A DNA stretch of 63,283 bases, counting the filler. It is 5 parts of 5 records of this genome, joined end to end, with 100 filler letters (N's around TTAATTAATTAA, not from the genome) between each part and the next. Parts side by side here need not be neighbours in the genome. Positions count along the whole stretch, not along the records: positions 52,516 to 63,283 come from SRR20825019_2697; 4 more parts are not named here. The stretch is one strand, 5' to 3'. Shown here piece by piece: positions 34,094 through 63,283 of the stretch. How positions within the stretch are numbered: position 1 is the stretch's first letter; each line of letters begins with the position of its first letter. Both the position numbers and the translations under genes were made by a program. The notes under the pieces were generated by a model, which was not told the origin of the DNA, made no database searches, and saw only the letters and a list, made by a program, of their open reading frames with translations.

Positions 34094-34120
34094 ACTGCTT
34101 AAAAGGAAAAATGCCAATCA

Positions 34121-39013: not shown

Positions 39014-39113
39014 NNNNNNNNNNNNNNNNNNNNNNNNNNNNNNNNNNNNNNNNNNNNTTAATTAATTAANNNNNNNNNNNNNNNNNNNNNNNNNNNNNNN
39101 NNNNNNNNNNNNN
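39014..39113. other. Artificial contig linker
   Basis: 44 N + TTAATTAATTAA + 44 N. Confidence 0.98.
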
Positions 39114-39114
39114 C

Positions 39115-39576: not shown

Positions 39577-39776
39577 GCATTCGATAATTCCTGAATTTCC
39601 TGACAGATAGAAACACCGCGGCGGATATTTCCCGCGGTTTTTCTGATGTCATCTGACGGAAAGGTGATGATTTCATCACAAATCGGGGTGGCCAAATCAA
39701 TCCCCCCTGTGCCAAAGTCGAACTTGCGCACTACATAGCGTTTCCAGACCAATAAACAGAAACAAGCGCCGCCGCC

Positions 39777-40775: not shown

Positions 40776-40810
40776 TCCGAACATCACCCCATTCCAGTTA
40801 CAGGCATAAA

Positions 40811-41947: not shown

Positions 41948-42414
41948 GTGAACGCCTTTCGGACCTGCTCGATTGCCGTCATCGCGACGGCATGGCTTTC
42001 CGCCGCCAGCAGATGAGCAGGGCAACGCGCGCAATCCGAACTGCCAAACCCGGCAATCGGAATGGAAATGCCCGGCACCATACCCAAAGCAGCACGCAAA
42101 TCGCATTCACACCCATCGGGCATGACAAGCATCGCAACCACGTGCCCGGTGCCGTTGGTCAGTTCATCGACATGCCAATGCTGTTTTTTCTCCGTCCGGC
42201 AATGACGTTTGACACGGGCCGCAATGCCACCCGATCCGTTGGCAGAACCGCAATAAAGATAAGTGCCCCGGCGCAGGATGGCCCCGGCGAAGCGTTTGTT
42301 CCGTAAAACCAGATCAGCAGAAAGATCAATCACGAGAATGTAGGCTCCGGCAACTTTGGGAAGCTGCCGGAGGGTTTCATTATTTATGTCAGCAACAAGC
42401 TGCGTCAAAGTCAC
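41944..42414 (-). CDS. DUF123 / GIY-YIG (Uri) superfamily nuclease
   Basis: GAYIL, YLYCGSA, RVKRH, HWHVD, GFGSSDC..C.AHL. Confidence 0.78.
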   Translation of the reverse strand: MTLTQLVADINNETLRQLPKVAGAYILVIDLSADLVLRNKRFAGAILRRGTYLYCGSANGSGGIAARVKRHCRTEKKQHWHVDELTNGTGHVVAMLVMPDGCECDLRAALGMVPGISIPIAGFGSSDCARCPAHLLAAESHAVAMTAIEQVRKAFT

Positions 42415-42926
42415 AGCAGCAGATCAACCGAAAGACCGGGGCCGCGCGTGCCATTGGCAAGCACGGGTTCACAATCCTCGTTGATCCGTGACGCGATGCG
42501 CTGTCGCAAAGCACTGAAACGTTCCGACGTCACGACATCAACAGGCTGATCCAGATGAACCTCGATCCGGTAAACACCGCCAACCGGGGTTCTGGTGACA
42601 CCGCGGATTTGGCCGCACACCGCATGGCCGAGATAGGACCCGGCAAAGCGTTTGCCGATACCAAGATCGGCAATCCGGACCGGTTCGCGTTTGCGCGTCA
42701 TGGCAATCGCGGTGTTCCAGTCACGAAATCCGTGGCTTTGCGCCAGAAGCTCCAGGCTTCCGGTGTGGGAAACCGTCATCTTGCGGCTGGCCAGTGCCTT
42801 GCGCAGGCGCTTTGCCTGCTGCTTAAGTATTTCCGCCGGATCGCCCGATGCGATTATCGCAAAATCGGCAAGCTCGACCGGTGTCTGTTCAGGCTTTTCG
42901 GGCGGGTTATGAACGGGTTGGGTCAT
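42411..42926 (-). CDS. Glyoxalase-superfamily (Glyoxalase_8-type N-domain) protein
   Basis: LKQQAKRLR...SHTGSLELLAQSHGFRDWNT; AGGAG RBS before the ATG at 42926. Confidence 0.7.
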   Translation of the reverse strand: MTQPVHNPPEKPEQTPVELADFAIIASGDPAEILKQQAKRLRKALASRKMTVSHTGSLELLAQSHGFRDWNTAIAMTRKREPVRIADLGIGKRFAGSYLGHAVCGQIRGVTRTPVGGVYRIEVHLDQPVDVVTSERFSALRQRIASRINEDCEPVLANGTRGPGLSVDLLL

Positions 42927-43255
42927 TTTCGTCTCCTGACAGGAGGCCGGGTGTCCGCATTGCCGGTCCGACGTCACAAGAAGACGGGGAACCGATAAAA
43001 TCGTCTGCATCACTTTACCATGAGCCAAAGCCCCGCGAACGGCCGGTGTGTGCAACCGCGCATTTCGTAGCGCAATGTGCCGCAAAACACAAGCACCACC
43101 ATATCTTTGACCGCGCGAAGCGCATTACCGCTTGCAGAAATTGACAGCCCCTACAGGGACAACATATACCAGAATTAACAAATATCGCCGGGCACCCGGA
43201 TGAATGCGCCAAACAGGGCGCAAGGGTATTCGACCAATTATAAGGAATTAGCGCC

Positions 43256-43489
43256 ATGGCCATGGAAGCCCACGAAATCGAAACGATGATCAAGGAAGCC
43301 CTTCCCGATGCACAGGTCCGCATCGAGGACCTTCGCGGTGATGGCGATCATTATGCGGCAATCGTTGTGTCCGAGTCCTTCCGCGGTAAAACCCGCGTGA
43401 TGCAGCACCAGATGATCTATTCGGCCCTCAAAGGCAAAATGGGCGGTGACCTGCACGCCCTTGCGCTTCAGACTTCCGCACCGGAATAA
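43256..43489 (+). CDS. bolA: BolA family protein
   Basis: GDGDHY, FRGKTRVMQHQMIY, LHALALQT. Confidence 0.92.
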   Translation: MAMEAHEIETMIKEALPDAQVRIEDLRGDGDHYAAIVVSESFRGKTRVMQHQMIYSALKGKMGGDLHALALQTSAPE

Positions 43490-43728
43490 GTTCCGGCCGC
43501 ACGCACGGGACCGCCTTGCGTTTGCCACCATCCTTGCAAGGCCGCCAGAAAATTACGGGCACCGATCAGCTTCGGTGCCCTTGATAATTCCCGACCCAGA
43601 CCAGAATGACTACCCGTATTCGAACCCGGATCAATATCCGGGTTTCCGCTCCGGTTCAGGCTTGAATATCGTTCCGCCCATCGGGCACCTGCCGTTTGGC
43701 CCCACAAAATGACCATGGTTCAATAACG

Positions 43729-44637
43729 ATGTCCTCATCCCAAAAACCGGCTTTGATCGGTGCCGGACCGCTAGCGGGGCTTGGTGCCTTTGTCATCTGG
43801 GGCTTTCTGGGCTTCTATTTCAAAATCATCGATTTCGCGAGCCCGTTTGAAATTCTCGCCCATCGCATCCTATGGTCGGCGATCCTGACATTGACACTGG
43901 TTTTTGTCCTGAAACGTCGTGCGCGATTGTGGGACCTGCTGTCGTCTAGGCGCACCATGGGACTGTTATTCATAAGCAGCCTGCTGATCGCCGGGAACTG
44001 GGTGATCTATATCTGGTCGGTTCATATCGGACATGCGCTTGAAGCCAGCCTTGGCTATTACATCATGCCGCTGATCATGCTGATCCTTGGTCGCATCTTC
44101 TTTGGCGAGAAGCTTAATCGCATTCAGATCGTCTCGGTACTGATCTGCTTTGCCGGGGTTCTGAACCTTCTGGTGTTTTTCGGATCACTGCCGTGGATTG
44201 CGCTTAGCCTGTCGTTGCTGTTCGGCTTTTATGGCGTCATCCGCAAATTTGTTCCGGCCGATCCGATTGCCGGTCTGTTTGTCGAATGCCTGCTGCTGTC
44301 GCCGGTGGCATTTGGCTATCTGGTCTGGCTGAATGCATCGGGCACCATGGCCTTCACCAATCTGGGGATTGGCCATGATGCCCTGCTGGTGTCGCTGGGC
44401 GCTGTCACAACCATTCCGCTGGTGCTGTTTGCCTTTGCTGCCCGGAACATGAAATTTTCCGCGCTTGGCCTGATGCAGTATCTGAATCCGACGATCCAGT
44501 TCTTTGTTGCGGTTCTCTTGCTCGGCGAAACTTTTACCCAGGCGCATATGATAACTTACGCGCTGGTCTGGATCGGACTTGGCATTTTCACCTGGGATAA
44601 TTTGCGGACTGCACGGCAATTACGCCGCAAGAGTTGA
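43729..44637 (+). CDS. rarD: EamA-family transporter RarD
   Basis: EILAHRILWS, EASLGYYI, GLMQYLNPT. Confidence 0.9.
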   Translation: MSSSQKPALIGAGPLAGLGAFVIWGFLGFYFKIIDFASPFEILAHRILWSAILTLTLVFVLKRRARLWDLLSSRRTMGLLFISSLLIAGNWVIYIWSVHIGHALEASLGYYIMPLIMLILGRIFFGEKLNRIQIVSVLICFAGVLNLLVFFGSLPWIALSLSLLFGFYGVIRKFVPADPIAGLFVECLLLSPVAFGYLVWLNASGTMAFTNLGIGHDALLVSLGAVTTIPLVLFAFAARNMKFSALGLMQYLNPTIQFFVAVLLLGETFTQAHMITYALVWIGLGIFTWDNLRTARQLRRKS

Positions 44638-44734
44638 CAGAACCGCCCCTTCCAGCCATATCTTCGGCCATAAAACCATAACCTGAAATATCGCGGCAGA
44701 GAGATCGCCGCCTTTGCAGCCAAGGACAACCAAC

Positions 44735-44931
44735 ATGACCGACAATCCGGTTTTTGATCGCATCCAGAAAGACATCAACGACAACGACGTCGTTCTGTTC
44801 ATGAAGGGCACCTCGATGTTCCCGCAATGCGGTTTCTCGGCCGCAGTCGTTCAGGTCCTTGCCGAACTCGGCGCGCCTTTCAAGGACATCAACGTTCTGG
44901 TCGACCCGGCAATCCGTCAGGGCATCAAGGA
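44735..44931 (+). CDS. grxD: Monothiol glutaredoxin Grx4, 3' truncated
   Basis: VLFMKGT..FPQCGFS. Confidence 0.92.
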
Positions 44932-45031
44932 NNNNNNNNNNNNNNNNNNNNNNNNNNNNNNNNNNNNNNNNNNNNTTAATTAATTAANNNNNNNNNNNNN
45001 NNNNNNNNNNNNNNNNNNNNNNNNNNNNNNN
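44932..45031. other. Artificial contig linker
   Basis: 44 N + TTAATTAATTAA + 44 N. Confidence 0.98.
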
Positions 45032-45391
45032 GCGGTCCTTGCCGGCCTTGTCCTTGAACTGGGTCATCCGGTTCATCCAGCCGATCCGGGCGACGCAGTT
45101 GAAAATCCAGGCCAGCTCGGCATGCTGCGGCACGGCAGACTGATTGAACACGATGTGCTTTTCGGGGTCGATACCAGACGCCAGATAGGCGGCGGTAATC
45201 GCGCGGGTCTGTCCCTTCAGGTCCTCATGGACAAGCTGGGCGGTGATCGAATGCATGTCGACCACGCAATAGATGCAGTCCATCTTGTCCTGAAGCGCCA
45301 CGAACTTCCGGAGCGCGCCCAGATAATTGCCGAGATGCAGATTGCCGGTCGGCTGGACGCCGGAGAAGATTTGCGGCTTGAATTCACTCAT
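45032..45391 (-). CDS. trpS: Tryptophan--tRNA ligase, 3' truncated
   Basis: [25 protein letters not shown]. Confidence 0.95.
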
Positions 45392-45485
45392 GTCATTTCT
45401 CTTTCGGACGGGTGGAGGGCCCGGTTGGTTGGACTTTGCTGGCAGCGCTTATGCACCGCAGCGCGCAGCGCGTCAAACGGAGAAC

Positions 45486-47045
45486 TCAGCGGCGTTTGAC
45501 AAGCCGTTTGATCAGCGTCCGGTTGACGCCGCCAGTGACAAGCACGAGGCCGAAATAGACCGCCATGGCAATCGCGAGCAGGATCAGAACGCCGCCGAGC
45601 TGCTGCAGGAAAGGCGCACCCGGCGCAAACCAGGCCGACAGTTTCACCGCCGTGAATTTTACCGCCGCCGCCATCGCCGCCGCACTCATAACGATCAGCG
45701 GCACCCGGCGCACCAGCAGGCTATCGAACTTCAACTGGCCGGATATCAGCAGCGTGGTCGCCAGCAGCACCACATTGGTCCAGCCCGACACGACTTCGGC
45801 CAGCGCGATACCGCGTTCGGCGAGGATCGGAAACAGCGAGATCGCCAGAACCGAATTGATCGCCACGGCAATCATCGTGAAACGCATCGGCAGCTTGGTG
45901 TTTTCACGCGCATAAAAGGCCGGTTGCAGCGCCTTGGTGAGCGCGAAGGCCGGCAGCCCGAAGGCGTAGACCGTCATGATCGCGGCCACCAGCGTCGTGG
46001 TCTCGGGGGTAAAGGCGCCGCGCTCATAAAGCACGCGGGTGATCTCGGTCGAGATCATCATCAGCCCGAACGCCGCCGGAACGGTGAGGAAAAGCACAAA
46101 CTCGATGGTGCGGTTCTGAATATGCCCGGCCTCGGAAAAATTGCCGGCCTTCAGCGCGCGCGACAGTTCCGGCAGCAGCACCACGCCACCCGCAACGCCA
46201 ACGACGCCGAGAGGAAGCTGATAGAGCCGATCGGCATATTGCAGCGACGAGATCGCGCCATCCTTGCCGGACGCCACCGCCTGACCGATCAGCTGATTGA
46301 TCTGGATGACGCCGCCTGTGATCGCCGCCGGCACGGCCAGCGCCACCAGCCGCCTGATCTTCGGCGTGATCTTCGGCCACCGGAAGGTGAAGCGGATTCC
46401 GGCGCGCCGCACATCGAACCAGACGACGGCGAGTTGGATGATACCTGCGCCAAGCACCCCCCAGGACAGATATTCCGCCATCATCACGGGATCCGCGCTG
46501 ACCCAGACGCCGTAGCCAAGAACGGCGATCAGCACCACATTGAGAAACACCGGCGCGATCGCCGCGGCGAAATAGCGGTGCAGCGAGTTCAGCATCCCGC
46601 TCATCATCGCCATCAGCGACATGCAGATCAGATAGGGAAACATCACCGATGACAGCCGCACCGTCATCTCGAATTTCTCGGCGTCGTCGGCAAAGCCCGG
46701 CGCGATGACGAAGCGCACGATCAGCGGCATCGCCAGTTCCATCGCCACGGTGATGAGAAACAGCGCCGTGAACAACACGCCGAAAACCTGCTCGGAAAAG
46801 CGCTTGGCGCCGTCGATCCCGCTTTCCTCGATCTCTTTCGAGAACAGCGGCACGAAGGCGGCGTTGAACGCGCCTTCGGCAAACAGCCGCCGGAACAGGT
46901 TGGGAAAGCGGAAGGCGGCGTAGAACACGTCGGCCATCGGGCCGTTGCCGAGCGCCGCCGCCATCATGGTTTCGCGCGCAAAGCCGAACAGCCGGCTTGC
47001 AAACGTCGCGCCGCCAACGGTGGCGAACTTGCCGACGAGGCTCAT
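45486..47045 (-). CDS. murJ: Lipid II flippase
   Basis: [34 protein letters not shown]. Confidence 0.95.
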
Positions 47046-49966
47046 TTGTCGCGCCCGTCCTTTGCATCGACGCGCCGGGCCCGCGTACCGTTTTCGGCCG
47101 GCAGCAGCATGCCCGGCGGCATGCCCTTGCGGTAGTCGTCGCCCTTGTCCTCGAGCACGGCCTTCATCCTTTCGACGATCGCAGCCTGCCGGCTTTCACT
47201 GGTGATCTTCGCGCCGATCAGATCGGTCACGTAGAAACTGTCGATCACCTTCTCGCCGAATGTTGTGATCCGCGCGGTCTGGATATCGAGCGAAAGCTCC
47301 GACAGCGTCTGGGTCACATCGGCCAGCAGGCCGGTGCGGTCGAGGCACTCGATCTCGATGACGGTGAAGATGTTGGAGAGCTTGTTGGAAACGGAGACAT
47401 GGGTCGGCACCGAAAATGGCCGCACCGAACGGCGCTCGCGCTTGCGCGCCGCGATCAGCTCGTTGAGGTGCTTGCGGCCGGCAAGCAGGTCCTCGATCAG
47501 CTTGCCGATGGTGTTTGCGCGCCGCAATTCATCGGCGTCATCGTCAAACGCCCGGTTCAGGAGGATGGTGTCGAGCGCGCGGCCGTCGGTGGTCGTGAAT
47601 ATCTGGGCATCGGCAATGTTCGCGCCGGTCGCAGCGCAGGCGCCGGCGATGATCGACAGCAAACGCGGATGATCGGGCGCCAGCAGCGTGATTTCGGTAA
47701 TATCGTGAAACGCATTGGTGCGCACCATTGTCGAGAACAAGTGCCGCGCCTTGTCGGCCTCGCGGATGAAACGGGCATGGCGGACCTGATCTTCCAGCGG
47801 CACCGAGAGAAGATAGTTCTGGTAATGCAGATTGGCATATTTGTGCCGTGCGGCATCTTCCCAGCCGGTAAGTGAATCCTCCAGCACCTCGATCGCGCGC
47901 TCGGTTCGCGCCTTGCGGGAAACCGCCGAGAAACCGCCGGACAGCAGGATCTCGGTTTCGTAATAGAGCGTGCGCAGCAACTGCCCCTTCCAGCCGTTCC
48001 AAACATCGGGCCCGACGGCGCGGATATCGCAGACGGTGAGGATCAGCAGGAGGTTGAGCTGGTCGAGCGACTGGACCTTGTCGACGAAATCGACCACGGT
48101 CTTGCGGTCGTTGAGGTCGCGCGTCTGTGAGGTCATCGACATCAGCAGGTGATATTCGATCAGCCAGGCGACGAGTTCGGTCTGCTTTGCCGTCATTCCG
48201 AAGCGCGGGCACAGCTTGCGCGCAACCCGGGCGCCGGCGATCGAATGGTCTTCCTTGCGGCCCTTGGCGATATCGTGCAGCAGCACCGCGACGTAAAGCA
48301 CGGTCCGGTCCTCGACCGACTGGATCAGCCTTGCGGCAAGCGGATGAAGCTCCGACTGCCCGCCGGCATTGTCGATCTCCGACAGCACGGCGACCGAGCG
48401 GATCAGATGCTCGTCGACCGTGAAATGATGATACATGTTGAACTGCATCATCGACACGATACGCCCGAATTCCGGGATGAACCGGCCAAGCACGCCGGCC
48501 TCGTTCATGCGCCTCAGATAAAGCGCCGGATCGTTGCGCGAGGTCAGGATCGACAGGAACAGCCGGTTGGCCTCCTCGTTTTCCCTCAGTTCGGCATTGA
48601 TCAGCGACAGCGAACGCGTCACCACCTTCAACGCGTCGGGATGGAATTCGAGGTCGTTGATCACCGCGACGTAGAAGAAGCGGATGAGGGCGACCGGGTC
48701 CTTCTTGAACACGTCCGGTTCAGCCAGCGCAATCCGGCCGCTGTCGGAGACGAATTCGAGCGAGCCCGGTATCTTGCGCTGGCGCTTGTAGAGCTTCGAC
48801 CAGACCACCTGCCCGATCGACGGCGAGGCCTTGGCCTGCTGCTCCTCAAGGTCGGAACAGAAGATGCGGGTCAGGTCGCCGACATCCTTGGCGACCAGAA
48901 AATAATGCTTCATGAACCTTTCGACCGCCGAAAGGCCGGGCCGGTCCTGATAGTCGAGGGCGGCGGCGATTTCGGCCTGGACGTCGAAGGACAGCCGTTC
49001 CTCGGCCTTGCCGGTCAGGAAATGCAGATGGCAGCGCACCGTCCACAGGAAATCCTCGGCCCGCAGGAACAGCTTCAGTTCCTGGCGCGACAGCACGCCC
49101 AGTTCCACAAGCTGGGAAGTGTCGCGCACCCGGTAGTAATATTTGGCGATCCAGAACAGCGTGTTGAGATCGCGCAAGCCGCCCTTGCCCTCCTTGACAT
49201 TGGGAACCACGAGATAGCGGGTATCGAAGGATTTCTGGTGACGCTGGTCGCGTTCGGCGAGCTTGGCGGCGATGAAATCCGGACCGGTATCGGCCACCAC
49301 CTCCTTGTCGAAACGCCGCTCCAGCGCATTGGCAAGCGCCTTGCGCCCGATGATGTAGCGCATTTCCAGGATCGAGGTGCGGATGGTCATGTCCGCCTTG
49401 GAAAGCTTGATGCACTCCGTCACGCTGCGGGTCGCATGGCCGACCTTCTGGCCCATATCCCAGAGCATGTAGAGAATATATTCGATCGCCTTCAGGGTGT
49501 CTTCCCGGTCGGAATCATCGATCAGGAACAGGAGGTCGATATCGGAGCCCGGCGCCAGCGTGTCACGTCCGTAGCCGCCGACGGCGGTGATCGCGAATTC
49601 CTTGCGGGTATCGGGGAAAATCGAGCGGGTGACGAGGTCATGCAGCGCGATCAGCATCTGGTCTTCGAGCCAAGAGATCCGCCGGGCGCATTCCAGCCCG
49701 CCGCCATCGGCCTTCAGCAGTTCGTAGGCACGATTGCGGCCTGCGGTATTGACTTCCTTCAAGCGCGCAAGGATCGCCTGGCGCACCGTATCCGCACTGC
49801 CGGCATGCCTGCGCGCGATCGCGCGCAGTTCGCTGCGCAGCGCCGAGGGCTCGAACACCTCCGTCATGGCATAGAGATCGGCCGGCGGCGCAGCACCCTT
49901 GACTGTCTGCTGCGCGGTACGCTCGCGCTGCTCTGGCCCGCGCTGTTCTGGCCTTCGTGTCTGCAT
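47042..49966 (-). CDS. glnD: [Protein-PII] uridylyltransferase
   Basis: [32 protein letters not shown], two ACT domains. Confidence 0.96.
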
Positions 49967-50020
49967 AGACCTGCCTTTTCATCCGCGGTTCTCGCGCCGC
50001 CGGAGGTTTCTTAAAGCAAA

Positions 50021-52414
50021 TCACTCGCCAATGGAAACGGCATCATGCATTTTCCGCTTCAGGGCGTAGAGCGTTTCCAGCGCTTCGCGCGGCGTCATGT
50101 CGTCGGGCCGGATGTCGGCAAGCATGGCTTCGACCCCGGAGGTTCTGGGCGAGGGCTCGGGCGCGCGCATGGCGGACTGGAACAGCGGCAGGTCGTCGAT
50201 CAGGCTCGCCGCCGGGTTCTTGCGGTCGGCATCCTCCAGCCGCGTGAGAACGTTCTTCGCCCGCTTGACCACGGCCGCGGGCAGACCCGCGAGGCGAGCG
50301 ACCTGGATACCGTATGAGCGATCCGCCGCCCCCGGCCCGACCTCGTGCAGAAACACCACGTCGCCCTTCCATTCCTTGACCCGCATGGTCGCGTTCACCA
50401 GCCGCGAAAGCTTTTCGGAAAGCACGGTCAGCTCATGAAAATGGGTCGCGAACAGGCCCCGGCAGCAATTGACGTCGTGCAGATGCTCGACCGCCGCCCA
50501 GGCGATCGACAGCCCGTCGAAGGTCGCCGTGCCCCGGCCGATCTCATCGAGAATCACCAGCGAGCGAGGCCCGGCCTGATTGAGGATCGCCGCCGTCTCG
50601 ACCATCTCGACCATGAAGGTCGAACGCCCGCGCGCCAGATCGTCGGAGGCGCCGACCCGCGAAAACAGCCGGTCGACAATGCCGATATGCGCCTTGGCCG
50701 CAGGGACATAGGCCCCGATCTGGGCGAGGATCGCAATCAGCGCATTCTGGCGCAGGAAGGTCGATTTACCGCCCATATTGGGGCCGGTCAGAAGCCAGAG
50801 GCAGCCGCTTTCGCCGGTGACCGGTGACAGCGTGCAGTCATTGGCGACGAACGGGCCCGACGATTGCCGGCGCAGCGCCTGCTCGACCACGGGGTGACGT
50901 CCGCCCTCGATTTCGAACGCCGTCGTTTCGTCAACCAGCGGCCGGCAATAGGCCTCCGCCTCTGCCAGCACGGCAAAACCGGCCGAGACATCGAGGACGG
51001 CAAGCGCGAGCGCGCCCTTCTTCAGGCTCTCGGCAGCCGCCACGACATTGCGGCGCAGGGTTTCGAAGGTCTGGAGTTCGATCACCAGCGCCTCGCCGGC
51101 GGCATTGGCGATCCGGCTTTCGAGATCGGCAAGCTCGGCGGTGGTGAACCGCATCGCATTGGCCATGGTCTGGCGGTGGATGTACTTGGCCTTCGCCGCA
51201 TCGCCTTCGGTCAGCGCGCGGGCATTGCCGGCGGTGACCTCGATGAAATAGCCGAGCACGTTGTTGTGCTTGATCTTCAGCGCCTTGACGCCGGTCTCCT
51301 CGGCATATTGCGCCTGAAGCCCGGCAATCACGCGCCGCGACTTGTCGCGAAGCCCCCTTGCCTCATCAAGCGCATTATCAGCGCCTTCGCGCACGAAGCC
51401 GCCATCGCGCTTCAGCAGCGGCAACTCATCGGCAAGAGTGGCAGCGAGTTGCTGCTCGAGCTCGCGCGGCAGCGCCTGGAGCGATGCCAGTGCCGCTGCC
51501 AGTTCCGCCGGCAGTTCGGCGCCCGAAAGCACATCGGCAATCGAGCGGGCAACGGCAAGGCCGTTCTGGATCGCGCCGAGATCGCGCGGGCCACCGCGAT
51601 CGAGCGCCAGACGCGACAGCGCGCGCGGCATATCGGGAAGCTGCTTCAGGTGGTCGCGAACGGCATCCGAACGCGCCACATCGGCCAGAAAAAAACCCAC
51701 GGAATCCAGACGGGCGAGGATGATTTCAGGGTCAGTCAGCGGCGACATCAACCGTTCGCCGAGAAGGCGCGCGCCGCTGCCGGTGACCGTCCGGTCGACC
51801 GCCTTTAAGAGCGACCCGTCGCGTCCGCCCGCCATGGTGCGCACCAGTTCGAGATTGGCGCGGGTGGCGGGATCGATGAACATCGCGCTCGAAGCGCCGT
51901 CCTGCTCGGGAATGCCGAGCGGCGGACGCTCGTTGATCTGGGTCTTTTCGACATAGGCGACGGCGGCGGCGGCGGCGGAAAGCTCCGGCCGCGAAAACCG
52001 CCCGAAGCCATCGAGCGTGGCAACGCCGAAGAAGCGGCCGAGACGGTCCTGGGCGGTGGCGCCATCGAACAGCACGGCCGGCTGCGGAGAGACCGCGCGG
52101 CCTAGAAGATCGAAGACCGGGCGCAGTTTCTCATCGGAAAACACGGTGTCGGCAACGAGCAATTCGCGCGGCTCGACGCGCATGATATCGGCGGCGAGCC
52201 TGCCTTCGGAGGAAGCGCACACCCGAAAGACGCCGGTGGAGATATCGATCCAGGCCAGACCGTAATTGTTCTCCCCCTCGCCCTTCACCCGCGACATCGC
52301 CATCAGATAATTGCTTTCGCCGGGCGCAAGCAGCTTGTCCTCGGTGATCGTTCCTGCCGTCACCAGCCGGGTGACATCGCGCCGGACCACGGATTTCGAG
52401 CCGCGCTTCTTGGC
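50021..52414 (-). CDS. mutS: DNA mismatch repair protein MutS, 5' truncated
   Basis: [38 protein letters not shown]. Confidence 0.97.
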
Positions 52415-52415
52415 C

Positions 52416-52515
52416 NNNNNNNNNNNNNNNNNNNNNNNNNNNNNNNNNNNNNNNNNNNNTTAATTAATTAANNNNNNNNNNNNNNNNNNNNNNNNNNNNN
52501 NNNNNNNNNNNNNNN
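52416..52515. other. Artificial contig linker
   Basis: 44 N + TTAATTAATTAA + 44 N. Confidence 0.98.
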
Positions 52516-52771
52516 TGCTGATGAGATCTCCGACCCTGAGGCCCGCGGAGGTTGCCGAGCGCGTCCTGAGGCCCAGCTTCAGGGCAGCGGGGCGGCTCAG
52601 GTCACGGCAAGGGATTGTCCTTGGGTTCCACCTTTGAGTTCGGTGCCTGGCCCGTGAAACGGTTGCAAAAAATTCAAAGATTGTACTGAGGTTACAATAA
52701 TCAATTAATGTAGCAAACTTTAATAATAAATTGCCACTGGAGTGTACACATTCGCGCTGCTCGCCGCGAAC

Positions 52772-55723
52772 TCACTGATCCATTCTTGATGACTGCGTAG
52801 GGGCCTGCGCGCCGGTCGGAGGAACGGTCTCCTCTTCCTCAGGTTTCACACCGACCACGCCAGAACCCACAACCGGAACAGCGTCCTGAGCGGCCATCGC
52901 TGTGGCTGCAGCAGGGACCGCTTGGGCCGCCGCGGGGGCTGGCGCTGGCGCTGGGGTTGGTGCGTAAGAGACTGCACCTGGTGGCGGTGCCATGGATGCC
53001 GCAGGGGCGACAGCGGGAGAAGGCGCTGGCGACGGGACCTTAGAACCAGACCGGGCGGTCGGTGGTCGAGCGGCCGGTGATCGGGCGGCCGGTGGCGAGG
53101 CGGCCGGTGGCGAGGCGGCGGGGGCGGGTGACGGCTGCCTCACCTTCGGCACTGGACGAGAATGTCAGCATGTCAGCACTGCCTACAGCCTGGCCAGATC
53201 ATCCCACTCACCAGCACGAGTCGAAAGGTTCCACGTCAGCACGTTGTAGTTGTAACGGGACATGAACGCCATTTCTTGAGCGGCGGCGACGGAATCGCTG
53301 CCGTATCGGCTTAGGAAGGCGTCCTCGAAATAGACATTGACCTTCCTCACAACGTTCTTGAGCTGAATCGCATCCACACTGTCGATGCCATCACAGTCAG
53401 CGGGCCCACCGACCTCCAATGCATCCACAAGACACCTCACCTATTGGTCTCGAGCAGCTCGCGGTCAACGAACCTCTCTAAGGACTTCAGCCCATTAGCC
53501 TCCTTAGGAGCGATGAACCAGCGCACAATGATCCAGCGGGCGTTGTCTACACGCAGCATGCTTTCAATGCGGCCAATCCACGAGCCCTGGTCGACTGTCA
53601 CATAGTCGAAGAGCTCAAACTGGGTGCCCCGAACTGAGGCGGCGCGATGCTGGCAGGCACGAACAATGTTGGACTCGATCCATGCCCCTGTATCAACAAA
53701 GCGGTCCCCATCGCCCGAATCGTTCAGGGTAACGGCGGCGCCCGACACCGCCCACTGAAGCAGGGTAAGCAACTATTGTGCGAACAGATTGCGGTTCCAG
53801 CACACACACCCCAACCAGCCCGACCACAGATACAGCACGGCAGAGTACCACCGCCCTCCGTCAGACCCGCGCTTCCTCAAACCACGCTACTTACTGTGCG
53901 CTCCGCCATCTTCTTAGCATCCTCATGCGGGATGCTAGGGTACTGATCCCGGGCGGCCTTGATCGCCCTGGCCGCGGAGAGGGCAAACTCCTTGTCGGAT
54001 GCCACCAGTTTGTTGTACACCCGCTTCATCATCGACGGTGTGTCACGCACCGGGGCCGGAGGAGCGGTAGGCTTGGTCGTTGGCTTGTGAATACTGCCCG
54101 TGCCTGGGGACTTCTTTGCGGGAGGGGGCGATGAGACCGCAGTCCGGGGGGCCATGCTCATGCTCGACGGTGTATTTGACTTCCGTGCGGCCTTGCGCTG
54201 CTCAATCAGCATCTTCTGCTGCCGGTACTCCTCCTGGGCCTTCCGAAGGCGGGCCTGCTCCGCCGCCTTCTCCTTCATTTCTTCCTGGGTCAGCTGGCGC
54301 AGCTGGGGGCTCCACTTCGAGGCCTCGTGAGAATACCTGAACGCCGACTCGCTCCCGGCATATACGTCGTCCTGTGCGAGGTTCCCACCGACCGCTTCCT
54401 TTGTCAACACCTGGAGCTGGTTGTAGATGGATTGAGATATCAAACTCACCATCGCTGCGGAATATACCACAAGGTCAGAGGGTGAGAGCATCCCGGTTAA
54501 GTTGGTTGGTGCGTACCCCTGTCCAGCCCCAGATCGGCGCAGATCACCTCCGCAAACTCATCCGGGTTATTCCGTTTGTCACTAATATCCCACCAGAACT
54601 GGTCTTTTAGCGCCATACTGCCATGGCTAATGTCAATCTTGATCCGCACTAGCCGCTCCTGGCCGGCCACGGTTAGGTAGCTACGGTAGGCGCTGACCTG
54701 CCCCCGGATTTGCTGTGCGACCTTGGCGGCAAAATGGCCCGGAACCTTGAAGTCCTCGCACACCACCGCAGCGAAGTCCTCTGGTGTAGTTTGCGTTTCT
54801 GTTTGAAGAACCGAAACTGGTCAGTTCCTCCCAAAAAAGAGGAGAGGTCAACAAGAAGAACCACAGCCACGCTACCATTGAGGTTCCAGCTGAACGTGTC
54901 CTTGAGCATGTATTTTCCTTCAGATATATTGAGGGTGATGGGCACCAGGCAGTCGTTCACCGAGCGGCCTGGTCTTTAGTCAGAGCGGACACGCCATAGC
55001 AAGAGCTCCCTGTACTCACAGTATCCCCGCTCGAGGTGCTCCGCCACATGAGGCGGCACGCAGTCATCCCCTTTCTTCGACTGTGAACCGTGGGGGGCGA
55101 ACTTTGCTGCCTGCAGTTCCTTGACTTGCCGGGAACCGCGCGGCCGCCCAGGGCCCCTCCTCTCGCCTTCAGGCCGCGGCTTGCGCTCTGGCTTTGGTGC
55201 ACGCGGCCGCGGCCCCGTCTGCATAGAGCGGGAGAGCACCTGGTTGATGTCGATCGAGCCCTCCCTGCCACTAATGTCAGCGCGCATTACAATCTCGAGT
55301 ATGTCCTGGGAACGTACTTCATTCGCGAGATGAAGTCCCGCACAACTTCAACCATTCGATCGGTGGTGTACTTGTTGTTAAGGAACATGGACATCATCGA
55401 CTGCGGGCATCCCAGATACTTTGCAAGCTACGCAGGCGCAAGTCAGCGCACCAACGAGCCAACAAACCAGAACCACCACGGGCACTCACCGATGTTTGGT
55501 TAATGTGGCGGTCCAAAATGAGCTTCCAGCCCCACTTGCGAAGGTCATCGACTTTGAGTTTATCAGGATCCACATCTACAAGCATGGGGTCCGGCCCTCC
55601 AGTGTATGGCTTGTCCTCTGGAATCATACCAGGCTTCCGAGGCTCTTCTTCGAGCTCCTCCTTGTGCTTCTTAGAGGCAGGTGCGGCGTCGCTACCGTCT
55701 TCTTCCCTCTCCCTCTTCGTCAT
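52772..55723 (-). CDS. Eukaryotic SNF5/SMARCB1-like chromatin remodeller subunit with HTH, AT-hook and BAH domains (9 exons, 800 aa)
   Basis: Exons 55723-55490, 55427-55318, 55264-55020, 54968-54876, 54798-54517, 54454-53895, 53772-53441, 53378-53212, 53151-52772 splice in frame via GT-AG introns; SNF5 repeats LVPITL..KDTFSWNLNE..TPEDFA and KDQFWWDI...PDEFAEVICADLGL; WSPQLRQLTQEEM tail. Confidence 0.8.
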
Positions 55724-55915
55724 GGCTGCACGAAATGCTACGCCTTCCTAGACCACTATACTTATGAGTCTCGCTCCATGAGAGTTGTGTCGTGGGTGCC
55801 GGGAACAACAAAGGGGCATACCGGCCAGTGGATAGTAGGCCCATTATCGCGCGGCCAGCCGCCGACGCGAACCTCGGAGACACGACATTGGGGCGGTGCT
55901 CGGACGGGCGTGGCG

Positions 55916-56082
55916 GCCCGACCTGGCGACCGCAGTGGCGGGCCGGGCGGGCCAGCGGCGGGCGGCCCGTGCCGCGGCCAGGGCGGCGGCGGCCCGCCCA
56001 GCCAGTGCGCCCCGGCGGGCCAGCCCGGCCGGGGGAGGCCACCGGGCGGCCCCGCTGGGCTGAGTTACGTGCCAGGTCGGGC
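55916..56082. repeat. Very GC-rich tract bounded by a 12-bp perfect inverted repeat
   Basis: GCCCGACCTGGC (55916-55927) / GCCAGGTCGGGC (56071-56082). Confidence 0.55.
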
Positions 56083-56637
56083 GGCCGCCGGGCGCCTGAC
56101 TGGGAGCCGGGTTTCCCGCGTTTTCATTCACTCAATCAGCCGGTCCGGGGTGTGGCTCGCTCGCAGTCGGACCAGTCCAGTCGGCGGGCCGGCCCCCGCC
56201 AATTGGTGGCGTGGGCAGACGGCCCAGCGGGGGCATGTTGTCGACGCTGCACAAGCGTCAAGTTTGATTTGTGAGAAATCTCAATTGAATATCCGATATG
56301 CTTCTATAAATATCTGAAAATAGAGATGTATGGTGTTTCTCTTAACCAACTTGTGAGTAGTGCCAGACAAGCACTGCGGAGACACTATGTGTAGTTAGTT
56401 CGTTTCATCGTATAACACTGATGAAGTTACATCCTGTAGAAGAAGCAACATCGCATATGGAAGCATAGAGCATTTTCGATAGGGACACAATAAACTGTAC
56501 ACCATACATGAAACCAAAATGAGCCCCTTTCCATCAACAATGCACAACATACTCTCTTCTTCTTTTTTTTTTTTTTTGTATTTACTATTCCCCCTAAACG
56601 CACACCAAGGAGAAGATGTGGGCACAGAGAACTATGC

Positions 56638-57628
56638 TTATTCCTTCTTGCCACCCTTCTTGGACATCTTCTTAACGTAGAACTCGAGCTCCTTACCCTC
56701 AAGAACGTATCCGTCGCAGCGGCCGGACTGACCGGGGCGGGAAGAGATACGGGCGTAGAGACGGCCAGTCTGGAACTGGTGAGCGATCTCCTGGTCGATG
56801 ACACGGGTGGTCTGGCGCTCCTTCAACTTGCGCTCGACGTGGTTGGACTTCTTGACCTCAGCAGTCTCCTCCTTCTTGGCGCCCTTCTTCTTACCGAGGG
56901 CAACACCGTAGTGCTGGTTGTACCACTGCCTGAAAGGAGCAGCATCGATCTGCACAATAGCACCCTTCACGAGGGTCTTGGTACGGACCAACTCGTTGTT
57001 GGAGGCGTTGTACACGACATCCAACACACGGGTCTTGCGGGTGGTGGCTGGAATACTTATGTCAGACCAAAATCACCACGCCTGCGACCACTTTCCCAAA
57101 CTTACTCTCAGAGCCCCAGCTGAAGTTACCAGTGTCCAAACGGAGGGCACGGAACTTCTCGTTACCACCACGAGTGCGGACAGTCCTGATACGCTTGGTG
57201 CCGAGCTTGGTCATGGCAGCAGGGCGGCCGAGCTCGAATTTCCTCTTCTTGCGGTAGTGGGGGCGCTTACCACCAGTAGCGCGGCGCTTGTGCCGGGAGT
57301 CCCGAGAAATACCTATTACCCTTGTTAGCATAAATGCCCTTTACACTCCACGTCCTTAGCCATGCCCCAAACAAACACTAAACATAAATCATTGAAAAGT
57401 GTGGGTCATATCCAACATTTACCACCAACACAGTGGTGCAGGCCGGAAGAAGCACGCACAATATGTAGGCGAGTCCTGTGATAACCTCTCGACATTTTCC
57501 TATCACGTAGCGCTTCTCGCACGTGATACCCCACTCAAGCCCGCACCGCCCGACTTAATCATTCCCAACCCAGCCCACACAAATCCGGCACCAACAACAC
57601 AAAGCTGCATATTATAATACTCACCCAT
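56638..57628 (-). CDS. RPS8: 40S ribosomal protein S8 (eS8), 3 exons, 206 aa
   Basis: Exons 57628-57625 (ATGG), 57312-57106, 57047-56638 give [16 protein letters not shown]...[13 protein letters not shown]...[19 protein letters not shown]. Confidence 0.95.
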
Positions 57629-58820
57629 GGTGTGTGTGCGAGGGGTCTAGGGTATCTTTGTGGATAATGTGCGACAACCATATATACAGAGGAGGCGATA
57701 GGTTGGGCGCAGGGGAAGGCGGGTCTTGGGGCCGGGACTGATTGGACGTGGACGCGTGATGAGCGGTGGCGGCGAGCCCGGCCGGCTACGACAGGATGCT
57801 AGGACCCTCGGTGCTCAACGCAGAGCCCAGAGGAGGCAGGCAATAGGGCATGGCTGACCCGGGTGACCGAAAAAACCGATCGGACAGAGAAAGCACCCCA
57901 GGTCACGAACACGAGAGTCAAGGAATGTCAATAGGCAGTCACATGATTCCCCATGCGAGGTGTGTTCAGGGAACCACATCAAAATGTGCGCCATGTGAGC
58001 GCACATGCCGAGGGGCCATGCTTTCGGACGGGGGGCGTCCGATCTTACCAACCACTAGATATACCGCATTATTTGACCATTACGAACGAGGCTGTTAAAA
58101 GATTAACCGCACACTTTGTCATATTTATTTGTGACCTTTAAATTGTGATGACTAAATGCGACCGATTGTTGGGGCCATGCTCTGGCCCCCAATCAGCCTG
58201 TTCGGGACGTCGGATTGATGAGTGGCCCGATCCGAACCCGGCAGCCGGGCGACAAGCCTGACGGATGACCGCCGCCGAGGCGGCCACGGTCCGGTGAGAT
58301 GGCCGCGGAATTGGCCAATCACTGAAGTACACCACCCGGAACGTTTGTGGGCGGAACTTCCGGCTGAACAGCCGGAGTGACATCCGAGTGGAGGGGCGCA
58401 CTGGTCATGCATGATGATTCATGACCGCTACGGTGAAGTGGCGCCACAGCCCCCCAAAGAAACTTGGGCGCGGGATCACGGCCGGGGGCACCGCGCCGAG
58501 CCTCCTCCGAACCATCGCGGTTGGGCGTTCTCCCTTCAGTGGTCAAGGGCCGGCCGCAGCGTCCTGCCGCCCGACCTCGAGGGGCTCGGCACATGGAAGA
58601 AAGCGTGAGAGTGTGTCCCTGTGGCCGTGGCGTCACTACCATACCGGCCGTCCAGCGTCTGAGCCGCGCCACGCCCGGCGTGGCGAGGTGAGCGTGCACC
58701 CCAACCACCTAGAACACACCAACATATATATCTGCCATCCAGTTCCATCAGCTATTCCAACTATTCGAACTTGAACGATTGGTTGCCGGTCAGTGGCTGC
58801 CGGGAACCTACCTCCATAAT

Positions 58821-60626
58821 ATGGAAGCAGCAATACGTAAGAAACGCGTAAACGTTACTGTTATTGCATGCTTGAGATGTCGAAGCAAGAAGAGGAAGTG
58901 TGATGGGGGCTCCCCGTGCTCCAGTTGTGTTGCGGCGGGGTTGGGAAAGGAGGACTGCGTAAAAGGCACCCGTGACTTCTCACGAAAGAATAGGCGGCGA
59001 CGGGTGCTCCAGAAGACTTCAGAGACGGACTCTGCTGAGACTTCTGAAGAGTCCGCACAATATTGTAGTATGGTTCAATGGGACGGGGCTAGGATTAGTC
59101 GGGAGCAGATGAGATTCGCATCACAGGCTGCGATGACATGGGAACGGACAGAGCTTCTGAGTTGGTATGCTGAATACCTTCCCACCTGCACTGCTCCGCA
59201 GTGGAAGCGTGCAAGGCGAATGCACACTATTCTCTTCCACAACATCAACGACAGGATTGCAGATGGCTCGCTGCACACGATGGAGGGTATTGGAGTCCGC
59301 TACTGTAATGCCATGTACCTCGGGTGTGCGCTAACATTCTACGGAAGGCACGAGCTAGGCATCATGCAAGTCAAGAATTTATTGAACTCTTCAAACGAGT
59401 TGCGTAAGATTCTGAGCCCGGAGAACTACTTCGATATTGGATTAGCTGGAGTTTCAATGTGCTCCCTCCTTTGGGATGAGCACCCAGTCATTGTACACGA
59501 TGCAATCACAGAGATCAAGGACATCTTGTTTGAGGCCGGCAATGCCTTTGGTCCCAATTTCCTCCATGAGTCATTACACATGACAACTGTCCTCATCTTC
59601 ATGAGCCTCATGACCGACATCAACTCTACCATAGTGGAGCGCACTCAAGCCTTCGCCTTTATGCAGTTTCCTATAATCCCCACTGATCCCGCTGCATTCT
59701 CGGTGGAGATACTTGACCCTGTGTTGCCGGACATGCGTGTGTATATTTGGGTAACGTTATATGAGATACTGGGGCGGCTGGGAGGGCGTCGGGCCGCAGG
59801 ATCAGTGGATCACTTCGTCCGCAATGGGGGTTATGGTTATCCATGTGATATGGTGGGGGTGTTCCGCATGAGCCAGGAAACATTTGCGCGTAGTAACATT
59901 GGGGCTGATAATAAGTTCAGTCTTCCTAAGGAGAAGGTTACAAATCTCTACCGTGCCTGGGAGGTTGTGACTTTTGCGCAGGAGGCTCTGAAGTCATTTC
60001 TGGATCGGAACATGATTTTCCGATATGAGGTCTTTGTTACCACCGTTCTACCATTGATTTTAATGGCGCTATTCATAGCGTACACGTGGTTAGGAGAGCG
60101 GAAGAAGGCAATGACGGTAGGTGAAACCCATATGTTGTTCTTGTATGTGTGTCTTTTGTGCAAGATGGGTGTGCCATGACTTGTGGATAGCTCTTCTTGG
60201 ATATGCGACAACTGGCCAAGTGTCCTCTAATCGCCATTATTGACAAACACTGCGCAGATATTCAATATTTTTAAGATGGAGTGCAAACACATCGCCATGG
60301 TGGGATGGCTTCCCTCACTTTACGATTGGGGATTGGTGGGTATGGTCGAGTGTGTCTACACCCAGTATCAGTCAGAGGAAATGTTGGCTGATGTACGTGA
60401 GGTTGTGGTGAAGGTACGGGATGCTAAGTCCATCAATGTCAATCCGGTGAGAGCAGCCCTAGTGGACGCGATTGACAAGTTCATATCGGACATAGAGAAT
60501 ACTCAGCTGCCAATAATGTTAGTGCAGAAGGAGGAGGCTTCTGGCAACCTGGGCCTCACTATACAAGAGAATCAGTCGTCAGAGCATGACTCGGGGGGTA
60601 GCGATATCATCTTTAAGATCCCGTGA
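58821..60626 (+). CDS. Zn(II)2Cys6 binuclear-cluster transcription factor (2 exons, about 554 aa)
   Basis: ACLRCRSKKRKCDGGSPCSSC-x9-C; phase-0 intron 60117-60257 (GTAGGT...TTGAC...CAG) joins the two ORFs. Confidence 0.78.
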
Positions 60627-61366
60627 GAATATGGGTTGTTTATGTACACTAGAGATGGTAACGCACCAAGACGGACCTCGATCCACGGCCGGTAGCCCTG
60701 CGCGGATGCTTGTTTGCTGGGAAATGCCAAGACTGTTAGCTCGGGCGAAGATTAGGCTGTGAGCCCTGTTGGGCGACGCGGTACCCCCGTAGGCACGGAT
60801 AAGTGTATCGTTCGTAGCAGGATTCAGGCGTCACGCACCACACCTAGGGACCGACCGGCGGTACTCAGACCTTACTCAGACCGCGTCAACAATAAATCCT
60901 GCTCAAGACCAAACTGATCAGTTAGTATGGACAGGTACTGTATGCTACTATTATTAGCACAACAAGTTGCGTCGACTGCCGTGAGTCGGGCTGCGGCGCG
61001 GCGCGCGGGGCCGGTCCGCCCACCCCCGGCTCTGTCACCGGGACCCCCCGTTGCGGCCCCGCGGGCGCACCGGCGCGGCCCCCGCCCCCGCCGGGCGTGA
61101 CCGGACTGCAGGGCGGGTTGCTCATGGTGGTAAGCCCCGGCCGCCGGCCCAGGTTGACTGCGACTGAGGGTTGTCAGCGTGCAATAGATGTCTGCAGCCT
61201 CTTGGTTCACGCCCTGGAGACACGTCGATGAGTGGATGGATCAAGCCAGGCCCTTTCGCAATCAGTCGGCCAGTCAGTCCTGTTGACATTGGTGTCTCGG
61301 AAACGACTCCTTAGGCCTGGTCGACGCCTCGCCTCAACCCGCAATAAATAAACCCTTGCCAGACAC

Positions 61367-61372
61367 TATAAA
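61367..61372 (+). promoter_or_regulatory. TATA box
   Basis: TATAAA 33 nt upstream of the ATG at 61400. Confidence 0.5.
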
Positions 61373-61399
61373 GGGCATCTCCGCCTTGCTAGGAACAAT

Positions 61400-63109
61400 A
61401 TGAAGTCGTCCCTCGCGTTTGTTGCGGTGTGTGTCCTTGCTTGCACGACCACTCTGGCATGGGCTCAAGACTCCGACGCGGTGTCACTCACCGCCGATGG
61501 CTTTGACGGTGACACACAGACTGGCGCGTGGTTCGTGATGTTCAAGGCGTTCTGGTGCGGTCATTGTAAGGTGTGTGGCGGCGGTGCCTTAGTTGTGCTT
61601 GGAGTGCCTTGTGAACTGACCTCCTCCTTGCGCATTTCTTTTTTCGTTACATCATCTTGTGCGTCACTGTGCTTGCTGCTCGCCTCGTTACCAACCTTTC
61701 ATTCCGATTCCCTTCATCTGTAACTCCATGGTGGCCTGCTCCGCATCAACGCCTCTTCTCCTTCGACACCACGTCTGTCTCACCGTCACAGGCCTTGACC
61801 CCTAAATGGGACGTCTTGGCCACTAAGACCAAGGGCCACGTCAACATCGGGGTGGTAGAGTGCACTGAGCAGAGGAGCCTATGTCAAGATATGGGCATCC
61901 GCGGCTTCCCAACACTGAGATTGTTTAAGGATGGCGAGCTCGCCGGTGAGTACCGTGGCCCTCGGACGGTGGAAGCGCTGGAGGAGTTCATTCGGGACAA
62001 CGGGGCGTATGACTACCACCTCCCCGACAACGAGGTGGAGACAGAGGCCGCTAACGCCGCGCCCGCTCCAACCCCGGAGCCGGAGGTCCACGCGGACCAG
62101 CCTCCGGCCCCGCCCAAGCAAGACTCTCCGGCTAGCCCGCCCGCTGACCACAAGAATTCTGACGGTAGGTGACGGTGTTTCTATTTATAGTTCCGTTTGG
62201 TTTGGTTTTGGGCTGTGGCGCGGAGGTTTGTTGGCGCTGAGAAGACCCCGACGCTCACTGTGGTACACGCAGTTGTGCTGCGCTATTTTGGGGCGCAGGG
62301 CCGGGCGGAGGCCGTCCGCCTCGCCCTGGAGGAACGTGGAATCGAGTACCAAGACATCCGCTTCAACCGCGACACGTGGCCGGATGAGAAGCAGAAGGGA
62401 ACCGAAGCGGGCATCTACACCTTCGGGCAGCTCCCTGAGCTCAGCATCGACGGCAAGCATATTGTCCAGAGCGGCGCGATCTTGCGGCACCTTGCCCGTA
62501 GAGAGGGGCTCTATGGGTCTGCCGGAGAGGAGACCATGGTGGACGTGGTGTTTGACGGTGCCGAGGACATGCGCAAGGCGTACGGGAAGCTGGTGTACTC
62601 ATCAGGCTTCGACGCTGATAGGTTGGTGTGCGGAGAGAGGTCGACTGAACGTCATCGATACTAACGCCCGTGGTAACTCAGGCCCGCGTATGTCAACGAG
62701 TATCTTCCCCTGTGGCTAGGCCACATGGAGCGGCTCAAGGCCAAGTCTCCCCATGCGGAGTTCTTCGTTGGAGAGCAGCTGACCATCGCCGATATTTCAA
62801 TGTTTAACATCCTCGACGTCAATACCCGCCTCGAGCCGAGCTGCCTCGACGCATACCCGAACCTCAAGGTAATGTGCGAAACATGGGAAGTTGGCGGCGG
62901 GGAGGCCACTGTGTAGTAGGATAGTGAATGCGGAACTGCTCCGCCAGCCAGGTGCTAATGAATCCCTGCAGGTTTTTAAGGAACGCTTCGCCGCCCGGCC
63001 ACGGATCGCGAGCTACCTCAGCTCACAGAGGCGCCCTGTCCATGCTAATGGGCCAACGTCGTTCTACGACAATGAGAACCGGCCAGCCAAGGGCAACCTC
63101 CGCAAGTAG
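61400..63109 (+). CDS. Signal peptide + PDI-type thioredoxin domain + Pro-rich linker + glutathione S-transferase (5 exons, 405 aa)
   Basis: Exons 61400-61570, 61792-62164, 62273-62621, 62682-62868, 62972-63109 splice in frame; WCGHCK, GIRGFPTL; GST YF..QGRAEAVR, FGQLP, QSGAILRHL, VGEQLTIAD, RPRIASYL. Confidence 0.8.
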
Positions 63110-63283
63110 TCATTTGCAGGGCGCTTCACGGTGCCCTTGCGGGGCATGGATGTGAAGATATCTTCGATAGTGGAGCACAAGCACAAGAGAAAGCATAGAT
63201 TCTGATATATAAATACCTTTGAATTCACTTGGTACCATGTATTATTTGAAGGCGGTTTCATTCTCCAACTCAACCAGATCAAC

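Follow-up and report, generated by a model that had tools for sequence, protein, structure and literature searches.

The window analysed here, a stretch of 63,283 bases, consists of five unrelated contigs joined end to end, and adjacency across the joins is meaningless. The last of these contigs carries on its minus strand a gene, hereafter the SNF5 gene, for a protein of 794 amino acids (aa) with two SNF5 repeats. The locus is a spliced and expressed eukaryotic gene, as seen in complementary DNA (cDNA). The explanation favoured for the whole, and which we consider likely, is that the product is a SMARCB (SNF5/INI1/Sfh1)-family subunit of a SWI/SNF-type remodeller with BAH-like and AT-hook-like additions. 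The location of the exons and of the regions that they encode is given in Table 1, together with the other features of the window.

The structure of the gene was defined from public run X1, which matches 70% of the words sampled from the stretch. In this run, one contig of 2475 nucleotides (nt; depth 34.5) aligns with the locus as nine blocks separated by eight skipped segments, all of which are bounded by CT..AC on the plus strand, that is by GT..AG on the minus strand. The absence of all eight introns from this contig leads us to read X1 as cDNA. The exon model built from the cDNA joints yields a messenger RNA (mRNA) of 2456 nt that, once 19 loose 5' letters are added, accounts for exactly the 2475 nt of the contig. 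These adaptor-like letters presumably correspond to the 3' terminus of a SMART-type template-switching oligonucleotide read in reverse complement, a resemblance that also points to a cDNA data set even if the kind of X1 is not on record. The nine exons form one open frame, with an ATG at 55723 that is the first Met codon downstream of an in-frame stop (55748-55750) and a stop codon at 52772-52774, and the mRNA begins near 55731, only 8 nt upstream of the ATG. Over 2456 nt, the cDNA contig and the window differ at a single position. This mismatch (55700, T>A on the plus strand) changes Glu8 to Asp and is situated 32 letters from the contig end; strain variation or an error may account for it. 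At the other end of the transcript, an ATTAAA hexamer occurs on the minus strand (52719-52724), 10 nt short of where the cDNA contig ends, and may be a poly(A) signal.

A previous examination of the letters alone (hereafter the sequence-only reading) had proposed one gene with eight GT-AG introns in a single frame, and the removal of all eight introns in one 2475-nt cDNA contig bears this out; the peptide strings that it quoted are all present in the spliced translation. Its intron coordinates agree with the cDNA in all cases but one, namely intron 6, which had been placed at 53773-53894 (122 nt) and in fact covers 53755-53894 (140 nt). The acceptor used in the cDNA is thus 18 nt further on and, both acceptors (53773 and 53755) being in frame, the single open frame is kept, with a coding sequence (CDS) of 2385 nt instead of the predicted 2403 nt. 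Likewise, intron sizes range from 51 to 140 nt instead of 51 to 122 nt. The CTGAC word, regarded as a branch site in most introns by the sequence-only reading, is present in all eight, and in seven of them its distance to the 3' splice site is 11-22 nt.

With a window that is a chimera of unrelated contigs, the locus might be suspected of being an artefact of assembly or contamination. Indeed, the five contigs differ in guanine plus cytosine (GC) content (from 0.39 to 0.63), are separated by N-containing linkers and include four that are bacterial. Contig 5, which alone looks eukaryotic, nevertheless contains the gene in its entirety, and the neighbours of the gene are typical eukaryotic genes encoding the ribosomal protein eS8, a Zn2Cys6 protein, a thioredoxin-domain protein and a glutathione S-transferase. 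The near-perfect agreement of window and cDNA comes moreover from an independent, spliced contig. Taken together, these data make an artefact so improbable as to be almost negligible.

Membership of the SNF5/SMARCB family is indicated by a full-profile Pfam match, by two repeats and by a basic helix region after the repeats, all of which were found. Scans were run exon by exon against 24,736 Pfam families with E<=1. Three consecutive exons matched PF04855 (SNF5; profile length 225) above its gathering cut-off of 21.8 bits: exon 4 with 25.1 bits (profile positions 4-31), exon 5 with 71.5 bits (E 1.1e-19, up to profile position 157) and exon 6 with 26.6 bits (positions 161-222). The matches are colinear over exons 4-6, across two introns confirmed by cDNA, and extend from position 4 to position 222 of the profile. 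When exon 5 was compared with the Protein Data Bank (PDB), 15 sequences were retrieved at E<=0.01, every one of them SMARCB1, Snf5, Sfh1 or a protein of a remodelling complex. The best match was human SMARCB1 (6kag_A, E 6.8e-21), with 6ltj_M and 6lth_M at ca. 1e-20, Snf5 (6l9j_A) at 6.1e-14 and Sfh1 (6k15_G) at 8.9e-12. Residues 46-92 of exon 5 align with both repeat stretches of SMARCB1 (6kag_A 15-61 and 64-135), and the occurrence of both repeats, as announced by the sequence-only reading, is thus well supported. The same applies to the C-terminal helix region that it had placed after the repeats, since residues 2-75 of exon 6 align with residues 325-405 of yeast Sfh1 (E 0.012), including a W.P...LT.EE block and the basic helix; the translation has an Arg/Lys-rich stretch at aa ca. 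385-413. A word-indexed protein search returned no relative of exon 5 and, among contigs of the Joint Genome Institute (JGI) metagenomes, none of 124 pattern matches to this exon survived tblastn. More generally, close relatives of either the SNF5 or the BAH-like exons were found in none of the collections searched.

Whether the SNF5 and BAH-like parts belong to one gene depends on intron 6. The cDNA splices 53895 to 53754 in phase 0, joining ...AERT to WAVSG..., which places exons 6 and 7 on the same RNA molecules. The sequence-only reading had itself envisaged a transcript terminating at 53877 with the BAH exons in a separate gene; this is not what the cDNA shows, in which the SNF5 exons are joined in frame to those downstream. 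The downstream frame has no Met ahead of its own conserved motifs, and only 140 nt separate the two parts. Together with the joint splicing, this makes a separate downstream gene very unlikely. A related alternative is that of two units, in which the main product would be a 513-aa SNF5 protein made from transcripts retaining intron 6, the fused form being a minor read-through or conjoined isoform. Retention of intron 6 would indeed lead to an in-frame stop (53877-53879) after five extra codons and hence to an SNF5-only protein. In addition, this intron is the longest of the eight and has no CTGAC close to its acceptor (the distance to the splice site is 106 nt), and Logan contigs are known to lose rare or alternative forms. 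As opposed to this, the sole contig recovered, at a depth of 34.5, is the spliced form, joined from a GTAAGT donor to a CAG acceptor, no contig of X1 covers intron 6, and the downstream exons have neither a start codon of their own nor room for a promoter. We therefore regard the two-unit alternative as highly improbable and a single gene as the preferred reading, in which retention of intron 6 could still act as a regulatory switch for the C-terminal part.

The N-terminal part of the protein, upstream of the repeats, is less readily classified. In exon 3, the motif RRGPGRPRGS has a Gly-Arg-Pro (GRP) core with flanking Arg and Pro residues and differs from the AT-hook consensus by a Pro in place of the usual Arg before the glycine of GRP. 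The motif quoted by the sequence-only reading is present, but it is not matched by Pfam, in which exon 3 hits no family, AT-hook included. The putative helical region that precedes it is encoded by exons 1 and 2 and had been taken by the sequence-only reading for an XRE-like helix-turn-helix (HTH), a proposal for which the scans gave no support; the only Pfam matches in the N-terminal pieces were weak and unrelated, with DUF5601 in exon 2 (E 0.017) and HeH/LEM over 12 residues (E 0.15). Two sets of PDB matches were discarded, those of exon 1 as consisting only of designed triosephosphate isomerase (TIM) barrels hit by a repeated short match, and that of exon 2 as limited to BCH1 at E 1.6.

We interpret the C-terminal extension as a probable BAH domain of strongly divergent sequence, and predict with good confidence that residues ca. 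545-668 form this domain. The Pfam BAH profile (PF01426) is 121 positions long with a cut-off of 30.8 bits, and the candidate domain, being split by intron 7, was scanned as exon pieces or slices, with exons 7 and 8 apart. In all four trimmed slices of exon 7 (48-68 aa), BAH was the sole family detected out of 24,736, with 11.6-13.3 bits (E 0.079-0.26) over profile positions 14-63. An E value of ca. 0.1 over that many families corresponds to a chance of ca. 4e-6 per family and per slice, and BAH had been named from the letters ahead of all tests. Searching 177,635 PDB sequences at E<=10 with an exon-7 slice gave two matches only, ORC1B (5hh7_A, E 0.99) and TNRC18 (8ds8_A, E 1.5), which both align over ca. 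31 residues of the WIGRIESM...VRWFIAPKE block; the matched chains are BAH domains. Finally, the language-model features of a protein atlas gave a value of 0.89, ranks 1 and 3 being occupied by BAH-bearing clusters, and all 10 best family-bearing matches fell in one family or clan. The BAH domain announced by the sequence-only reading is hence favoured by these leads and by its being the only family returned for the exon-7 slices, but its scores stay under the Pfam cut-off and exon 8 contributes nothing to it.

Several observations weigh against the explanation favoured for the whole. The transcript evidence comes from X1, a single data set of unrecorded kind, and its contigs are silent on the proportions of isoforms; the placement in a SWI/SNF complex is drawn from homology only; and no HTH family was detected by Pfam in exon 1, in its 27-aa tail or in exon 2, a negative that is weak, the region being split by intron 1 and scanned in pieces. 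The other observations concern the BAH-like region. The trimmed slices overlap and are hence not independent, the region was picked for its BAH look, and the best score is 13.3 bits for a cut-off of 30.8. Full-length exon 7 gave no Pfam family (0/2 scans, E<=1) and no PDB match (E<=10), and exon 8 was silent in five of five Pfam scans, in PDB (E<=10) and in the protein-atlas features. The atlas recognition value of 1921 is under the level of most known families, and the 0.89 ranks as "a lead only". Single-sequence AlphaFold2 models were of low confidence both for exon 7 (104 aa; predicted local distance difference test score, pLDDT, 46.4) and for the 68-aa slice (pLDDT 60.7), the latter being all-beta with five strands, which for its part speaks for BAH; when this slice model was compared with PDB using Foldseek, no match reached E<=0.001, the best E value was 0.73, the folds were unrelated and no BAH occurred among the matches listed, so that we consider the comparison uninformative. 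A phmmer search of exon 7 against 1.84 billion representative proteins found no true relative. The single match, P0001 (E 6e-6), was rejected as spurious, this immunoglobulin-repeat protein being matched over four repeats. Word-indexed protein searches with exon 7 also returned no relative (E<=0.001, and again with E<=10), and none of its 582 pattern matches among the JGI metagenome contigs survived tblastn. As a possible source of BAH sequences for comparison, bacterial genomes (0/1 and 0/401) and control genomes (0/14) yielded no PF01426.

These results leave room for an alternative in which the SNF5 subunit is real and its C-terminal globular region is another or a new beta-rich fold, or else a fast-evolving lineage-specific extension, that shares the succession "hydrophobic strand - VRWF - PxE" with BAH by chance. 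All BAH signals are sub-threshold and arise from one block of ca. 35 residues in exon 7, which, along with the silence of exon 8, the lack of relatives and the outcome of the Foldseek comparison, speaks for this alternative. Yet three methods, namely profile hidden Markov models, pairwise PDB search and language-model features, return BAH alone for the exon-7 block, and the later blocks (RELLETNSVDAIQLKNVVRKVNV, FMSRYNYN) keep the BAH motif order by eye, which we take as no more than a lead. Chance resemblance is for these reasons considered unlikely, and a divergent BAH domain remains the interpretation that we retain for the region. The Pro/Ala tail that follows it is probably disordered.

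When compared to known systems, the protein has features of several of them. SMARCB1 has an N-terminal winged-helix domain. As in human SMARCB1, two SNF5 repeats are followed by a basic C-terminal helix; however, SMARCB1 has 385 aa and ends soon after this helix, whereas the protein described here (794 aa) has a different N-terminus, a GRP motif and ca. 380 extra C-terminal residues that make up a linker, the BAH-like domain and the Pro/Ala tail. SNF5 repeats are also shared with the fungal proteins Sfh1 (RSC) and Snf5 (SWI/SNF), and it is to residues 325-405 of Sfh1 that the region after repeat 2 is best aligned. According to PMC13580576, the auxiliary N- and C-terminal domains of SMARCB proteins diverge among lineages and adjoin the nucleosome, and in C. 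thermophilum the Sfh1 protein (CtSfh1) bears at its C-terminus a C4 zinc finger, which packs against the repeats. That SMARCB proteins can have a further folded domain after the finger helix is thus a known theme; a BAH domain is not known at that place. The extra domain is BAH-like here rather than a zinc finger and, when compared to CtSnf5, the long N-terminal coiled coil is missing.

In yeast and animal SWI/SNF-family complexes, BAH domains occur on the Rsc1/Rsc2/PBRM1 (SMARCH) class and Rsc1/2 also have an AT hook, as far as can be taken from Table 1 and a reference title of PMC9170682. The combination of a BAH (here BAH-like) domain with an AT hook (here an AT-hook-like motif) is therefore common to Rsc1/Rsc2 and to the present protein, which may work like Rsc1/Rsc2/PBRM1. 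The members of that class are, however, recognised by their bromodomains, and they lack SNF5 repeats. Pfam detected no bromodomain in any of the nine exon translations (E<=1), and the present protein, with its SNF5 repeats, is accordingly not of the SMARCH/polybromo class. As for the BAH readers ORC1 and TNRC18, which are the sole PDB matches of the exon-7 slice and align with it over the block WIGRIESMLRV..ARWIIVRWFIAPKEA, they are replication or silencing factors and not remodeller subunits, and the similarity is that of the short, high-E alignments reported above.

Table 1. Location of the SNF5 gene, of its exons and introns, and of other features in the 63,283-base window
Feature	Position	Strand	Evidence or remarks
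Transcribed unit	52709-55731	-	Extent of X1 cDNA contig; 3' end at 52709
5' untranslated region	55724-55731	-	cDNA contig
Exon 1, coding, aa 1-78	55490-55723	-	Charged N-terminus and first half of putative helical/HTH-like region; no Pfam family at E<=1
Intron 1, 62 nt	55428-55489	-	cDNA contig
Exon 2, aa 79-115	55318-55427	-	Second half of HTH-like region (LAKYLGCPQSMMSMFLNNKY...)
Intron 2, 53 nt	55265-55317	-	cDNA contig
Exon 3, aa 115-197	55020-55264	-	Basic Pro/Arg-rich linker; no Pfam family
AT-hook-like motif RRGPGRPRGS, aa 150-159	55132-55161	-	In exon 3; read from sequence
Intron 3, 51 nt	54969-55019	-	cDNA contig; listed as 52 with one T between
Exon 4, aa 197-228	54876-54968	-	Start of SNF5 repeat 1; Pfam SNF5
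Intron 4, 77 nt	54799-54875	-	cDNA contig
Exon 5, aa 228-322	54517-54798	-	Remainder of repeat 1, larger part of repeat 2; Pfam SNF5
Intron 5, 62 nt	54455-54516	-	cDNA contig
Exon 6, aa 322-508	53895-54454	-	Completes repeat 2; then basic C-terminal "finger" helix region, Ser/Pro/Thr linker, helical stretch
Intron 6, 140 nt, phase 0	53755-53894	-	cDNA joint between 53754 and 53895
Exon 7, aa 509-613	53441-53754	-	N-terminal two thirds of BAH-like domain: FELFDYVTV, WIGRIESM, VRWF, RELLETN
Intron 7, 62 nt	53379-53440	-	cDNA contig; splits BAH-like domain
Exon 8, aa 613-669	53212-53378	-	Presumed C-terminal third of BAH-like domain
Intron 8, 60 nt	53152-53211	-	cDNA contig
Exon 9, aa 669-794 and stop	52772-53151	-	Tail rich in Pro and Ala (34 Ala, 30 Pro among 126 residues); no Pfam family
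3' untranslated region	52709-52771	-	cDNA contig
Contig 1	1-28558		GC 0.39
Contig 2	28659-39013		GC 0.53
Contig 3	39114-44931		GC 0.56
Contig 4	45032-52415		GC 0.63
Contig 5, carrying the SNF5 gene	52516-63283 (10.8 kb)		GC 0.57
Linkers	28559-28658, 39014-39113, 44932-45031, 52416-52515		
MuiA/SusC-like protein	11148-13094		Contigs 1-3, bacterial
TonB heme receptor	31346-34090		Contigs 1-3, bacterial
Type I secretion ATPase	35049-36866		Contigs 1-3, bacterial
FAD (flavin adenine dinucleotide) monooxygenase	40811-41944		Contigs 1-3, bacterial
RarD	43696-44634		Contigs 1-3, bacterial

The linkers that separate the five contigs each consist of 44 N, a 12-letter word with stops in six frames and again 44 N. 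Contigs 1-4 are bacterial, with long and densely packed open reading frames (ORF). In contig 4, a MutS gene located on the minus strand (50021-52415) and cut by a linker is 73% identical to loci of the Rhizobium group, which indicates that this contig comes from an alphaproteobacterium.

In contig 5, the gene immediately upstream of the SNF5 gene encodes eS8 (56638-57340, minus strand) and is found as two overlapping ORF pieces, indicating that it contains an intron. Between this gene and the 5' end of the SNF5 gene, the region 55840-56230 is very GC-rich, with repeated GGCGG/CCGCC-like words that produce long spurious ORFs on both strands. Further along the contig, an open frame of 488 aa on the plus strand (58713-60179) has as its sole recognised domain a Zn2Cys6 binuclear cluster of fungal type (Pfam Zn_clus, E 2.4e-7). 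It is followed on the same strand by the thioredoxin-domain gene (61615-62172) and by the glutathione S-transferase gene, which is split by an intron (62191-62664 and 62677-62916). When the eS8 fragment was compared with PDB, the best matches reached 190 bits and the next-ranked chains ca. 162-166 bits; the former are plant ribosome entries and the latter yeast, Candida, nematode and other non-plant chains. The style of the introns and the Zn2Cys6 protein are fungus-like, while eS8 scores highest with plant entries. No match to Rfam was found over the whole window, which therefore offers no ribosomal RNA for placing the organism.

By analogy with SMARCB1, Snf5 and Sfh1, the SNF5 repeats would dock the protein on the SWIRM domain of a SMARCC/Swi3-type subunit, in the nucleosome-binding lobe, and the basic helix (aa ca. 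368-413) would contact the H2A-H2B acidic patch. Both contacts are established for the SMARCB family and are restated in PMC13580576. Judging from sub-threshold similarity, the predicted BAH domain might give the subunit another grip on the nucleosome or on a histone tail; the basic GRP motif, together with the helical N-terminal region, might likewise touch linker DNA. In that case the core SMARCB subunit would bear AT-hook and BAH modules, which in yeast and animals are found on Rsc1/Rsc2 or PBRM1. A further proposal, which we put forward only tentatively and lean slightly against, is that an as yet unsampled eukaryotic lineage has moved a BAH reader and an AT-hook onto SMARCB/SNF5, so that one polypeptide would anchor to the acidic patch, read histones or the nucleosome and bind DNA in the minor groove, with a reader that intron 6 retention could switch. 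Given its lack of relatives among 1.84 billion proteins, this reader would also represent a very divergent branch of the BAH fold.

SMARCB/SNF5 is a conserved, nucleosome-anchoring subunit of SWI/SNF complexes and a tumour suppressor in humans. The sequence-only reading knew of no SNF5-BAH fusion, and this agrees with the literature searched, in which no description of such a fusion was found, architecture databases and supplementary tables being outside that search; the portion available of a preprint on the evolution of eukaryotic chromatin makes no mention of SNF5. Overall, these data indicate that a mixed, mostly bacterial record can conceal genes that are well supported and belong to a poorly sampled eukaryote. 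Should the C-terminal domain not be BAH, the protein is reduced to an ordinary SNF5 orthologue whose tail is lineage-specific. If it is, a natural SNF5-BAH fusion would represent a "Rosetta-stone" hint that BAH nucleosome reading takes place beside the SNF5 finger helix, and would provide a compact protein for testing BAH reading next to that helix.

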